From Trueperaceae bacterium (GTDB lineage: Bacteria > Deinococcota > Deinococci > Deinococcales > Trueperaceae), in NCBI GenBank assembly GCA_034520945.1, contig JAXHNB010000001.1:128001-192000 (forward strand): a stretch of 64,000 bases of DNA, written 5' to 3'. The position numbers are program-made. Below, piece by piece: positions 44,401-47,400 of this stretch; within the stretch, counting starts at the first letter, position 1; every line of letters begins with the position of its first letter.

Positions 44401-47400
44401 TGTGGGCCAAGGCTTCGAGGTGCTGCTTCAGGCTGACGTAGTGCATGCCCAACCCCCGGGCGAACGAGGCGAGGTCGGGCGCCTCCCCGGTTCGGGCGAC
44501 GTGGTCGCGCAGGCGTTCGTACACGCGGTGTTGCGCGGGGGGCAAAGGGCGAGACAAGGTACCTCAAATGATAAGGTACGCGCCCGTCCACGTCAAGCGT
44601 CGCTCATGATCCGTGGCGCATGCAGAGATCAGCGCGATGGCACGGGAGGCGCGTCCAGCACGTTGCTCGGAACCATTCCGAGAACCGTGGCGGAGCATGC
44701 GTGTGTGAAAATGGTGAGAAGCCACGTGTTGGACGGGGTTGACCGCGGCTCGGGGGGTTTACACGAAGCCGAGGAGGTGCTATATTTTTCGTAGTGATTG
44801 CGAGGGGGCGCCTGGCCCGAAGCCGGGTGGCCACCGTTCGAGACCCACCTTCTCACGCATACTCCTTCGCACCCCTGCACACCACCCGCCCGGATCCGCT
44901 CCGGTGATTTGGAGAAGAGGGAAGCCATGCTCAACACCTTCGAGACGCTCAACCAGCCGCAGCAGTGCGACGTGAACGACATCGTACCCAGCACGCTGGC
45001 CCTGCCGACCCGCACGCTCGAGCCCGGAAGCACGCTGTACGAGGCCGACCGTGAAGCCGCCAGCCTGTACGTCGTGAACTACGGCGTCCTCAAGGCGGTG
45101 GTGCCCACCAGCCTCGGCCGCGATCGCATCGCCGATCTGTACGGCACCGGCGACGTTCTGGGCCTGGCCTCGCTGGACGGCGGCCTGCACGCCGAGACGG
45201 TCGTGGCCGTGCACGAAGCCTGCCTGACCCCGATCGATCCGCAGCAGGCGATGAACGACCGCAAGCTGCGCGACTACATCATGCAGAGCATGGCGCGCCA
45301 GCTGCGCCGCAGCCGCGAGATGATCGACGAGGCCGAGATGCCGGTCGGGGCCCGCGTGACGCGCGCATTCCTGCGCCTCGCCTATCAGTTCGGTCAGCCC
45401 AGCGACGAGAACGAGGGCGGCATCAAGCTTCCCCTGGCCCTCACCCACGAGGACCTGGCCGACCTCACGGGCAGCAGCCGCGTGACCATCACGCGCATCC
45501 TCGGTGAGCTCCGCAGCGGCGGTGCGTTGGCCGGCACGCGCGGCGTCTACGTCGCCGATCCCGAAGGGCTCGAGCGCGCCACCGACCAGTACGTGATGCA
45601 GGTGCTCTGAGTCGAAGCATCGCACCCGACGAAGGCGCGGCGCCGGCCCCAGCGGTCGGCGCCGCGCTCGTGGGTAGGGCCCGCGTCAAGGCGTGTGCGT
45701 CGGTTCTTCGTCAGGCTGCAACGAGGCGCGGGTGCCGTACGCGTTCGCACCCCGGTCGCCGGGCCACGCCAGGGTGACCCCCAGGACCGCCAGCGACGCG
45801 ACCGCGAACACCCACGCGAACGGGAACGCGAAGGTGCTGAGCGGAAACGACAACACCAGCAGGCCCAAGGCGCCGTTCGCGCCCATGTCGTGGAAGCGTC
45901 GCACGGCCAGCGCGACGTGCACCAGCGGGTGCGCCAGCAACGCCGGCACGAAGGAGGGGCGCGCGACGGGCGGCGGCAGCGGTTCGGTGCCGCCCAGCAC
46001 CGCCAAGTCCAGCGCAGCACCGATGAGCCCGATCAGCACGGTCCACGCCAACAGGTAGGCGGCGTAGCGCCGCCGGCCCAGCCGCCCCCGCAGCGCGAAC
46101 GGATAGAACGTCTTCGGGCTCACCGCCGCTCGCCTCCTTCCCGCCCCACGCCCGAACGCCGTGGGTCGATCCGGCGCGGGGTTCGCGGCGCGACCCTACC
46201 GCAGCGGTCGCGCGGGCGAACCACGTAAGGTGCGGCGCGCGGCGCGGCGGGGCGCGTGCCTATACTGAGCCTTATGCTCACCTTTACCGACGTCGCCAGG
46301 GAGCGGGTGCAGGGCTTCCTGGACGCGCAGAAGTCGCAGGGCGTGACCGCGCTCCGCATCGCAGGAACGCGCGCGGACCCGAAGCTATGGTTGGTGCGGG
46401 ACGAGGACCGTCAGGAGGGCGACCGGAGCTTCGACGGCGGCGGCTTCGACGTGCTTCTCGACCCGATGAGCGCCCGTCAGCTCGAGGGCGCCACCGTCGA
46501 CTTCGTCGACGGTGTGATGCAGTCGGGGTTCCGCGTCTACTTCGAGAGCCCCAGTTGGGACGACCCTACCGCCCAACGCGTGCAGGACGTGCTGGACACC
46601 ATGATCAATCCGGGCGTCGCCGGTCACGGCGGCAGCGTCTCCCTCCACGGCGTCGAGGAGGGACGCGCCATCATCGAGTTCGGCGGCGGCTGCCAGGGGT
46701 GCGGTGCGGCCGACGTCACGCTGAAGCACGGCGTAGAGCGCATGATCCGCGAACAGGTGCCCGAGATCGCCGGCATCGTGGACGCGACCGACCATGCTGC
46801 GGGCGAGAACCCGTACTACGCGCCCGACCAGACGGCCGACTCGCCGTTGAGCGACCGCTAGACGCTGCGCTAGGCCCCGAAGGCGCCGTCCTCGCGCGGG
46901 TCGTGGCGCCGGCGCAACAAGCCGCCGACCACCCGGTCCAGGCTCTTGCCCTGGACCGGCTTGTAGATCACCTGGTCGGCGCCGGCCTCGCGCACGCGCG
47001 CCTCCATGTCGTCGCGCTCGGTGGAGGTCATGACCAGGATGGGCATGTTCGCGAACCGGCGCAGCCGACGCACGCGCTTGGCCAGCTCGAGTCCGCTCAT
47101 GAACGGCATCTCCACGTCCACGATCATCAGGTCCGGCGTGAGCGACTGCAGCAGGGTCAGCGCCTCGTGGCCGTCGCGGGCCGTCTCGACCTGGTAGCGA
47201 TGCGCGCCCAAGGCCAGCTCGAGGACCTTGAGGTGGCCTTCGCTGTCGTCGACGGCCAGGATGGTGCGAGAGGGGGCGGGAGAAGCAGCCATGGAGCCAT
47301 GGTGGACCCCCCAGCCTCACGGATCCCTTACGCGTAGGGCCGGGTGCGTCGCACGCGGCCCGCGCCCCGCCCGCCGGGCGGCGGTGCGGCCCGGGACTTG

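Follow-up and report, generated by a model that had tools for sequence, protein, structure and literature searches.

In Escherichia coli, where the SOS box has the consensus CTGT-N8-ACAG, LexA (structures 3jso/1jhh) combines a LexA_DNA_bind and an S24 peptidase domain, carries an Ala-Gly cleavage site and a Ser/Lys dyad, and has a dyad operator on its own promoter as well as on those of recA and of translesion-polymerase genes. Small membrane proteins are under SOS control in several bacteria (SidA in Caulobacter, TisB and DinQ in E. coli, YneA in Bacillus), and the LexA motif of Magnetococcus MC-1 is reportedly CCT-N10-AGG.

The LexA motifs quoted from PMC8565304, part of its 17, include TTAC-N3-GTAA, GGTT-N10-AACC and GTTC-N7-GTTC, and the available text of that study states that the motifs bound by LexA diverge once lexA has been duplicated. 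Within the phylum studied here, Deinococcus deserti has an ImuY-like homolog, a short ORF (the ImuB-C counterpart, with 80 residues in the accessible part of PMC8072749) and DnaE2, together with an extra recA besides the cinA-linked one. According to the available sections of PMC8072749 and PMC6300522, both of these recA genes are IrrE/DdrO-dependent, the two RecA proteins are 81% identical, and the targets of D. radiodurans LexA are unknown; no Deinococcus LexA operator sequence is given in those sections.

The locus described here belongs to a Trueperaceae genome (G000; 3.47 Mb, 71% G+C) and lies in a window of 64,000 nt. Judged by sequence comparison, a palindrome in its lexA promoter is in all likelihood the LexA operator of this genome, and lexA, one of two recA genes, an error-prone polymerase cassette and the gene for a small membrane protein are very probably under the control of this box.

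Sequence and position of the box at lexA

A palindrome had been described at window positions 44559 to 44579, and the sequence that we read there, GTACCTCAAATGATAAGGTAC, agrees with that description. Its 19-mer at 44560 to 44578, TACCTCA-AATGA-TAAGGTA, has arms that are complementary at six of seven positions, the sole exception being the Y/R position; the consensus of the Trueperaceae box is tACCTTA-N5-TAAGGTa. The distance of 37 nt to lexA given in the earlier note does not hold. The lexA frame extends up to a TTG at 44557, the residues ahead of the GVG... start are conserved, relatives have ATG at the same place, and the added N-terminal residues can be aligned with E. coli LexA starting at its residue 4. 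This frame and the conserved extra residues leave 2 nt between the end of the 19-mer and the start codon. The N-terminus SRPL(P/S)PAQ is conserved, with ATG starts in relatives from the same genus, and in about half of 29 relatives the box ends 1 to 3 nt ahead of the residue-1 position.

Table 1. Positions of the features discussed (window positions, unless a contig is named)
Feature	Coordinates	Strand	Basis
Candidate LexA operator, G-TACCTCA-AATGA-TAAGGTA-C	44559..44579	.	Matrix score 27.1 bits; orthologous boxes upstream of lexA
Predicted -10 hexamer TATCAT of the lexA promoter, within the palindrome	44568..44573	-	Promoter scan
Predicted -35 hexamer TTGACG of the lexA promoter	44591..44596	-	Promoter scan
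lexA, 206 aa, TTG start at 44557	43937..44557	-	ORF and profile matches
Crp/Fnr-family regulator gene, divergent neighbor of lexA, rival candidate binder	44927..45610	+	Weak NCBIfam matches
Predicted promoter TTTACA-17-TATATT (TG-extended) of the Crp-family gene	44758..44786	+	Promoter scan; ~180 nt from the box
72-aa ORF between the ImuY-like gene and dnaE2	C2:207533-207751	-	ORF

The promoter predicted on the lexA strand is TTGACG-17-TATCAT (10 of 12 matches), and the scan finds two promoter-like sites in the region, against 0.1 in shuffled sequences. The dyad overlies core elements of the predicted lexA promoter, with the -10 hexamer inside the box and the TTG start codon bordering it. Among 29 relatives, 20 have TAnnAT at the equivalent box positions and 26 have TTGAC(A/G) 16 to 18 nt upstream of box positions 5 to 10. 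The leader of the predicted lexA transcript would be only a few nucleotides long, making it effectively leaderless.

Genome-wide scans for the box

Repeating the pattern searches gave the same counts and contig positions as before, with 2 sites for ACCTYA-N5-TRAGGT at 0 mismatches, 5 at up to 1 and 65 at up to 2, and with 5 matches for CCTTA-N5-TAAGG at up to 1 mismatch, four of them being the sites at lexA, the second recA, the imuY cassette and the g01688/g01689 interval. This 15-nt core is not enriched in the genome, where its 5 matches compare with 18 for the reversed control GGAAT-N5-ATTCC. Within the 64-kb window, the pattern occurs once against 0.07 expected, a count that 7 of 100 shuffles reach.

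A weight matrix of 21 nt was built from 61 sites of relatives, with G000 itself excluded. It finds exactly four sites in the genome (35.1, 31.3, 27.5 and 27.1 bits), the next-best match scoring 10.4 bits, and this supports the four-operator regulon proposed earlier, including lexA, the second recA and the imuY cassette. The reversed matrix has no genome match above 12 bits, and 200 palindrome-preserving column permutations yield on average 0.09 matches above 20 bits (maximum 2, none with four or more). Below 12 bits the matrix shows no excess over its reverse (6 versus 9 matches above 8 bits). Since the training sites were chosen with the same pattern near selected genes and the relatives are kin, these counts overstate independence. 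In the information profile, the best-conserved columns are the G/C-containing arms (ACC...GGT), which lie outside the promoter hexamers.

Conservation across the family and the phylum

With up to 2 mismatches allowed, a box precedes the best lexA match in 29 of 30 loci and in 18 of 20 further loci, that is, in 47 of 50 family genomes, the three lexA loci without it being those of G053, G019 and G022. Between relatives the arms are kept and the spacer varies. Among named Trueperaceae/Truepera MAG records, 16 of 19 have a match of at least 28 bits. The pattern does not exceed its control in 5 of the 61 family genomes (G002, G012, G015, G019 and G053).

Outside the family, none of 20 lexA loci from three families of the phylum scores above 8 bits with the matrix. 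The lexA loci of these three families carry different palindromes at the same place, such as ACCTGTTATATAACAGGT upstream of lexA in one of them (family f3), which has the form CCT-N10-AGG. The CCT...AGG dyad reported for Magnetococcus MC-1 resembles both this palindrome and the Trueperaceae box (CCT-N9-AGG), but the latter is offset by one base in its spacing and the lineage is unrelated.

The two recA genes and the mutagenesis cassette

Besides lexA, the motif is found on recA and translesion-polymerase promoters, and it is conserved there in relatives. The claim that only the second recA has the box withstands a wider comparison, in which all 16 of the 16 two-copy genomes have a box ahead of the recA that lacks a cinA neighbor, and 0 of 14 have one ahead of the cinA-linked recA. 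In G000 the candidate operator is at C2:418397, at the recA copy unlinked to cinA, where it overlies the predicted -10. The two RecA proteins of G000 are 94% identical, and across the family the 5' ends of the recA genes average 96% identity within a genome, versus 71% between genomes. One possible reading is that gene conversion keeps the two copies near-identical while their control regions are kept apart, and that the duplication would be maintained for the sake of regulation and not to provide a RecA of a second kind. Control of the cinA-linked recA by IrrE/DdrO was considered and rejected, because no IrrE-type domain (PF06114) is found in G000.

The box reported upstream of the mutagenesis cassette was confirmed, with the candidate operator at C2:209291 ahead of imuY-(72-aa ORF)-dnaE2. 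For dnaE2 the best family is NF004225 (791.6 bits against a cut-off of 939). The ImuY-like protein scores 22.9 with PF00817 (cut-off 23.2) and at most 44.5 bits with Pol IV models, far under their cut-offs; the position and size of its gene fit a Y-family homolog upstream of dnaE2. The 72-aa ORF has no Pfam or NCBIfam match. The cassette begins with a lexA paralog in many relatives; in G000 lexA is located outside it. When imuY cassettes without an upstream lexA are considered, 9 of 11 have the box (G000, G044, G009, G021, G036, G030, G002, G046 and G028), and the upstream sequence of the two boxless ones is truncated.

The candidate ImuY-like homolog, short ORF and DnaE2 would correspond to the cassette of D. 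deserti, and an extra recA is present in both, with the differences that the extra recA of G000 has a LexA-type box, that its RecA copies are more alike, and that G000 has no IrrE domain. The IrrE-type protein (COG2856/PF06114) of the Deinococcus RDR regulon (DdrO/IrrE, RDRM) has no match in G000.

The fourth candidate operator

The fourth site had been placed between g01688, a ZapG-like gene, and g01689. The site itself stands (C6:20562), but its target is the small membrane-protein gene g01689 and not g01688. In two other genera the box is 1.0 to 1.3 kb away from the ZapG-like gene, which was rejected as the target, and in those genera the box always abuts the promoter of the small membrane-protein gene. 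There the box is located between the predicted -35 and -10. The g01689 product is small, has a single membrane helix at its N-terminus and matches no Pfam or NCBIfam family, and the combination of this gene with the box is seen in only 3 genera (7 genomes). In G010, G011, G013, G024 and G027, none of the 7 A/T-spacer sites inspected lies ahead of such a gene; what follows these sites are DinB-family, VOC/glyoxalase, TetR and TnsA-like genes, or short ORFs without an assignment.

The arrangement, a LexA-type operator ahead of a gene whose short product has just one membrane helix, at the N-terminus, resembles that of SidA, TisB, DinQ and YneA. It differs in the lack of a sequence family match and in the restriction of the boxed gene to those 3 genera. 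Our guess is that the protein may, like SidA or TisB, inhibit division or act as a membrane toxin.

LexA and its recognition helix

The LexA encoded in the window matches PF01726, the LexA DNA-binding winged helix, over residues 3 to 60 (35.2 bits, cut-off 23.7) and PF00717, the S24 peptidase (76.3, cut-off 23.3). With TIGR00498 it scores 95.8 bits over profile positions 3 to 200 of 203, so that the curated equivalog cut-off of 110.95 is not reached despite a full-length alignment; we read this as a divergent LexA. The alignment to E. coli LexA spans E. coli residues 4 to 197, and it contains the Ala-Gly cleavage site as well as both residues of the dyad, Ser in GDSM and Lys in VTLKYL (IPAGPL, SGDSM and VTLKYL here, paired with VAAGEP, SGMSM and VTVKRL in E. 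coli).

When LexA proteins and boxes are compared across the family, the two vary together. Of 30 LexA1 proteins, 28 have the helix HYVSL(K/R)Q, all with a type-1 box (ACCTTA-N5-TAAGGT), and the other two, from one genus (g29), have TYVTLKQ and altered boxes. LexA2 proteins with xY(P/S)TL(R/H)(E/G) go with ACCCT-N9-AGGGT in 15 of 15 cases and with type 1 in none of the 15, and those with (H/G)YV(S/T)L(K/R)Q go with the type-1 box in 4 of 4. These residues align to E. coli LexA 38 to 45, the start of its recognition helix. As the box variant tracks the recognition helix, binding by LexA is well supported, although it is deduced from sequence. In the lexA duplications of PMC8565304, too, the motifs diverge, and in many genomes of the family the two lexA paralogs carry palindromes that are akin but not the same (ACCTTA-N5-TAAGGT and ACCCT-N9-AGGGT). 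Here, the motif change can be tied to a few helix residues (HYVSLKQ versus xYPTLRE), and four LexA2 keep the ancestral-type helix and box.

Discussion

The system shares with that of E. coli the dyad operator on the promoters of lexA, recA and translesion-polymerase genes and the domains and catalytic residues of LexA. It differs in the half-site (ACCTTA and not CTGT), in the odd length of 19 bp with a 5-nt spacer, in the recognition helix (RSPNAAEE in E. coli, HYVS-LKQ here, with a one-residue gap) and in having only four operators. The box matches neither the E. coli consensus nor any of the motifs quoted from PMC8565304, the comparison covering those quoted motifs out of its 17.

The LexA-box reading was supported by every comparative test that we ran (conservation, targets, exclusiveness and helix-box covariation). 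The data show the sequences with their conservation and their places on predicted promoters, the exclusiveness of the four sites in the genome, and the covariation of helix and box; LexA binding, repression, damage induction and the transcription starts are what we infer from them. In the proposed mechanism, LexA would bind tACCTTA-N5-TAAGGTa as a dimer, using the recognition helix (M/L/V/I)HYVSL(K/R)Q in the winged-helix domain. Since the predicted -10 of lexA lies inside the box, which would reach both the transcription and the translation start, bound LexA would keep RNA polymerase off and so control its own gene. DNA damage would then lead RecA filaments to stimulate the self-cleavage of LexA, in which the Ala-Gly site and the Ser/Lys dyad are present, and four promoters would open, namely those of lexA, the second recA, imuY-(72-aa ORF)-dnaE2 and the small membrane protein. 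The cinA-linked recA, which is boxless, would supply RecA independently of LexA.

The divergent neighbor of lexA offers another candidate binder. Crp/Fnr consensus sites have even spacing, and DdrI, a Crp-family protein, takes part in the Deinococcus damage response. That the Crp/Fnr-family regulator encoded next to lexA (weak NCBIfam matches to PtrA, 60.1 bits, and LdrP, 57.9 bits), and not LexA, binds the box and controls lexA, recA copy 2, the imu cassette and the small protein is a reading to which we give very little credence. The gene does adjoin lexA in 28 of 30 loci (68 to 87% identity), it is better conserved than LexA (76 to 87% in 26 full-length matches), and its helix-turn-helix, invariant among the 15 ungapped rows listed, would fit an invariant type-1 box. 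However, the box changes with the LexA helix while the Crp helix stays constant, both in genus g29 and at the lexA2-headed cassettes (type-2 box, 15 of 15), and lexA2 promoters have the derived box with no crp gene alongside. The box is also present at lexA in genus g35 (G035, G056), though crp is elsewhere, and its odd length with a central base does not suit the even spacing of Crp/Fnr sites. In the LexA-less genome G018, a single genome with 9% contamination, the crp gene is kept, yet there are no boxes near crp or recA and the pattern is not enriched (10 versus 8 for the control).

A different damage-responsive repressor, for instance an XRE/DdrO-like one cleaved by an IrrE-like protease, might also bind the box and have lexA as just one target. 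The Deinococcus precedent, in which recA and repair genes are under DdrO/IrrE via a 17-bp palindrome and not under LexA (available sections of PMC8072749), speaks for this, as does the odd length of the Trueperaceae box; it is nevertheless very unlikely. PF06114 is found neither in G000 (97% complete) nor in its genus and is scattered across the family, with matches in 24 of 61 genomes, the covariation with the LexA paralogs would be left unexplained, and lexA, recA and the imu/dnaE2 cassette form the classic LexA core regulon (as described in the available text of PMC8565304 and PMC8072749). Extremely improbable, finally, is that the palindrome is no operator and reflects a promoter-associated sequence or a chance likeness among A/T-rich promoter regions of this G+C-rich genome. 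Its overlap with promoter hexamers, which are conserved anyway, and the unenriched short core would fit such a view, but the best-conserved columns are the ACC...GGT arms outside the hexamers, the register differs between promoters (over the -10 at lexA and recA, between -35 and -10 at the small-protein gene), and four matches stand against the mean of 0.09 in permutations.

In the open full-text literature we found no LexA box for Truepera, Trueperaceae, Deinococcus or Thermus, and a full-text search combining RegPrecise, Deinococcus-Thermus and LexA returned nothing. As far as the searchable literature shows, the Trueperaceae motif has no earlier description. More tentatively, and with rather less confidence than in the operator itself, we suggest a joint reading in which the recA pair would be kept near-identical yet separately controlled, a few LexA helix residues would switch ACCTTA-N5-TAAGGT to ACCCT-N9-AGGGT, and the family-less small membrane protein would act as an SOS effector.

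LexA-binding motifs vary by bacterial group, and each new motif opens a regulon to analysis. The present one points to a Deinococcota family with a clear, small and canonical SOS regulon consisting of lexA, recA, imuY-dnaE2 and one small membrane protein, and it provides a directly testable operator for cultured Truepera. The candidate lexA-promoter palindromes of two other families of the phylum may be used to seek the long-missing LexA targets of Deinococcus. Within the Trueperaceae, the lexA paralogs would let one follow in nature how the specificity of LexA changes once its gene is duplicated, and the recA pair would be unusual in that its near-identical members are set apart by their control alone.

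Genome-wide specificity of the palindrome

Positions 44559-44579 of the window read GTACCTCAAATGATAAGGTAC, and the palindrome itself (19-mer TACCTCA-AATGA-TAAGGTA, with a G on one side and a C on the other) is confirmed as an observation. In the assembly of the genome under study (G000; 3.47 Mb, 71% G+C, 10 contigs), ACCTYA-N5-TRAGGT matches 2 sites without mismatch, 5 with at most one and 65 with at most two, and CCTTA-N5-TAAGG matches 5 with at most one, which reproduces the counts of an earlier note; the window alone holds 1 match against 0.07 expected. The short core offered there as evidence is not enriched in G000 but rarer than its reversed control (5 versus 18).

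A symmetrised 21-nt matrix, built from 61 sites of relatives that were picked using the box pattern itself and with the G000 sites left out, scores the four candidate operators at 35.1 (imu cassette), 31.3 (contig C6), 27.5 (recA) and 27.1 bits (lexA), with the next best match in G000 at 10.4 bits. The reversed matrix gives none above 12 bits, below which the real matrix performs no better, and 200 column permutations keeping dyad symmetry yield a mean of 0.09 matches above 20 bits (maximum, 2). Across 61 family genomes, the pattern with at most one mismatch occurs 1557 times versus 426 for the reversed control, exceeding it in 56 of them.

Coordinates of candidate operator sites and associated features in G000 (the window is C1:128001-192000; positions without a contig name count from the window start)
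Feature	Coordinates	Strand	Context
Box, at most one mismatch	C1:172561		lexA
Box, at most one mismatch	C2:209293		precedes Y-family homolog (467 aa), 72-aa ORF and DnaE2-type polymerase (NF004225, 791.6 bits)
Box, at most one mismatch	C2:418399		precedes recA (TIGR02012, 542 bits)
Box, at most one mismatch	C6:20564		between ZapG-like gene (PF06295, 42.1 bits) and unnamed gene
Pattern match, at most one mismatch	C5:44998		intragenic
recA copy (L034)	C2:418501-419625
recA copy (L035)	C6:599152-600216
lexA -10 hexamer TATCAT, predicted	44573-44568	lexA strand	consensus scan, TTGACG-17-TATCAT; inside palindrome
Crp/Fnr-family regulator gene	44927-45610	+	divergent neighbour of lexA
imu operator-to-imuY leader, ~150 nt	L001 about 7150-7290 (= C2 about 209150-209290)	- (L001)	14-codon ORF; inverted repeat

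Conservation of the box upstream of lexA

Of the 61 family genomes sampled (36 genera, G033 included in the tally), 59 have a LexA homolog. A box with at most two mismatches immediately precedes lexA at 29 of the 30 best loci (no mismatch in 14, one in 14, two in 1), relative G053 being the exception. The same holds for 18 of 20 further genomes; the other two, G019 and G022, have related palindromes. In a second set of 19 Trueperaceae/Truepera lexA loci, several of which come from the same genomes as above, 16 have an upstream matrix match of at least 28 bits. Outside Trueperaceae, LexA homologs from three families of the phylum share 29-46% identity with that of G000, and none of their 20 lexA loci has a matrix match above 8 bits; at the same place upstream of lexA, one family has TACCTGTTATATAACAGGTA or TACTTGTAACCTTACAGGTA and another mostly AGCTAAG-N4-CTTAGCT. 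The box is therefore specific to Trueperaceae.

Candidate operator and promoter architecture

The gene adjoining the box in the window is lexA: PF01726 (35.2 bits) and PF00717 (76.3 bits) each match over cut-off, TIGR00498 is covered over the whole profile at 95.8 bits (under its 110.95 cut-off), and the product aligns with E. coli LexA residues 4-197, with the Ala-Gly site and both dyad residues (Ser, Lys) in the aligned part. The frame is open up to a TTG at 44557. The residues gained by this start (SRPLPPAQHR) are kept in relatives, where an ATG opens the gene at the same point, and they also line up with the beginning of E. coli LexA. Only 2 nt separate the 19-mer from this codon; the distance of 37 nt proposed earlier is not borne out, because the start codon on which it rested had been placed too far downstream.

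Consensus scanning finds 2 promoter-like sites in the lexA region, where shuffles give 0.1. Among the 29 relatives whose lexA carries a box, 26 show TTGAC(A/G) at a distance of 16-18 nt upstream from box positions 5-10, 20 show TAnnAT at these positions, and in about half the box ends 1-3 nt before the residue-1 position. From this register, the lexA mRNA is predicted to start at the start codon or a few bases before; leaderless mRNAs are described as common in Deinococcus deserti (PMC4007540, abstract).

The box-bearing recA promoter, read by eye, has the same arrangement as lexA (TTGTGC, 18 nt, TAGGAT inside the box). At the C6 site, the left arm shares bases with TTGACA and the right arm is followed by TAGGCT; at the imu cassette, we tentatively regard TATGCT, abutting the right arm, as a promoter element. 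Judging from these sequences, a box-bound protein would cover core promoter elements at all four sites. The imu leader also contains a 14-codon ORF, MNAGTPLRAPPPAR, whose ATG lies 7 nt past the predicted -10, and a perfect 13-bp inverted repeat, TTCGGACGTACCG ... CGGTACGTCCGAA.

Candidate proteins binding the box

With respect to the binding protein, the box type follows the recognition helix of LexA. All 28 main LexA proteins (LexA1) with a (M/L/V/I)HYVSL(K/R)Q helix have the type-1 box (family consensus ACCTTA-N5-TAAGGT). Two LexA1 from one genus have TYVTLKQ, and there the lexA box is absent in G053 and has a mismatch in G029, the recA box is TACCGTA-AATAC-TATGGTA (arms ACCGTA/TATGGT; 19.6 bits), and the genome-wide pattern count of G053 is 1 versus 1 for the control. 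The loci of this genus are L019 (G053), L030 (G029) and L156.

ImuY homologs are found in 33 of 61 family genomes. Thirty imuY loci were fetched, 19 preceded by a second lexA, complete or as a fragment, and 11 without lexA-like sequence upstream. Nine of these 11 have a type-1 box (G000, G044, G009, G021, G036, G030, G002, G046 and G028), and the other two, G019 and G037, show none in the only 144 and 30 nt of upstream sequence. Promoters of 15 of the 19 lexA2-headed cassettes carry ACCCT-N9-AGGGT (type 2; e.g., TTACCCTCAGAAACAGAGGGTAAC) and no type-1 box; the remaining 4 carry type 1. The second-lexA product has xY(P/S)TL(R/H)(E/G) with the type-2 box in 15/15 cases and (H/G)YV(S/T)L(K/R)Q with type 1 in 4/4. 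In the alignment with E. coli LexA, the helix residues fall at 38-45, which we take to be base-contacting positions (3jso work), and the recognition-helix region discriminates the box types. In relatives (L081-L104), the palindrome of the second lexA is a separate one, TTACCCT-N7-AGGGTAA, and a promoter of the TTGACA-N17-TATCCT type lies upstream of it; both the paralog and such sites are absent from G000.

The Crp/Fnr-family regulator encoded beside lexA is another candidate binder, as its gene is a divergent neighbour in 28 of 30 loci (L004-L033) and its product, 76-87% identical in 26 full-length matches, is more conserved than LexA. Its helix-turn-helix, however, does not differ among the 15 ungapped rows compared, the altered-box genus included, and lexA also carries the box in G035 and G056, where crp lies elsewhere. 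Relative G018 keeps the Crp gene, but no lexA was found there, no box lies near crp or recA, and the pattern is not enriched (10 versus 8 for the control). The G018 assembly (L161) is 98% complete with 9% contamination, and the sole recA found there is linked to cinA. The interpretation of the box as a LexA operator is supported by the helix-box match, the conservation at lexA, recA and imu, and the exclusiveness of the four sites; a functional link between lexA and the Crp-family regulators is possible. No IrrE-type protease domain was detected in G000, and its occurrence in the family is patchy (24 of 61 genomes).

Probable differential control of two recA genes

The two G000 RecA proteins are 94% identical. 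In 16 family genomes having two full copies, with the box sought within 400 nt, recA without cinA upstream has a box in 16/16, whereas recA directly behind cinA (CinA identity confirmed by Pfam) has one in 0/14, supporting the earlier claim of an SOS regulon that includes only the second recA. Of two other second copies for which no cinA was found, one is boxless and one has a single 2-mismatch match at -282. Where a single recA was recovered, the box is present without cinA in six genomes (G014, G015, G046, G025, G031 and G050) and absent in one (G002), and no box was found at the cinA-linked recA of three (G007, G012 and G022). The 5' 170 nt of recA are on average 96% identical within a genome (89-100%, 16 genomes) versus 71% between genomes. 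This within-genome likeness points to concerted evolution, with the upstream regions staying different. In many draft genomes, recA is missing or at contig ends, as expected if near-identical copies break assemblies.

The fourth candidate operator and possible accessory targets

The target of the C6 site had been left between the ZapG-like gene and its neighbour. The box lies ~100-125 nt from the ZapG-like gene in G000 and two same-genus relatives, and 1.0-1.3 kb from it in three genomes of a second genus and one of a third. In 7/7 genomes, it is embedded in a promoter pointing away from this gene (with TTGAC on the left arm and a TAnnnT hexamer past the right one), followed by a short ORF encoding a single N-terminal hydrophobic helix and then (H/N/S)D. 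We reject the ZapG-like gene for its distance in two genera and the promoter direction, and read the small-protein gene as the target instead. The small membrane proteins match no Pfam or NCBIfam family; our guess is that they are SOS effectors with the membrane or cell division as target. In three relatives (L107, L109 and L111), short 'MN...' ORFs begin directly after the -10 in the leader of this gene.

The further A/T-spacer sites examined in five other genomes lie ahead of various genes, namely DinB-family (2), VOC/glyoxalase, TetR and TnsA-like ones, or of unassigned short ORFs, so that the accessory regulon varies. Boxes with high scores in other genera (L164, L175, L170 and L171) precede DinB-family (two genomes), VOC/glyoxalase-type and TnsA-like genes, named from their first residues and the earlier note.

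Relation to known LexA motifs

The available text of two reviews (PMC8072749, PMC6300522) gives no LexA operator sequence; for D. deserti, both describe two recA genes and RecA/LexA control of lexA-imuY-imuB-C-dnaE2, and LexA targets of D. radiodurans are stated as unknown (PMC8072749). Seventeen LexA-binding motifs have been counted elsewhere, with lexA duplication linked to motif divergence (PMC8565304), and the accessible portion of that paper has no mention of Deinococcus or Thermus. No Truepera LexA box was found in the searchable literature, RegPrecise, CollecTF and subscription papers lying outside its scope. The conserved palindromes directly upstream of lexA in the other families (L135-L154) are candidate LexA boxes, in groups for which the LexA targets are stated to be unknown. 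For Trueperaceae, our results support a new candidate LexA-binding motif and a small SOS regulon, the first described in the family as far as could be searched.
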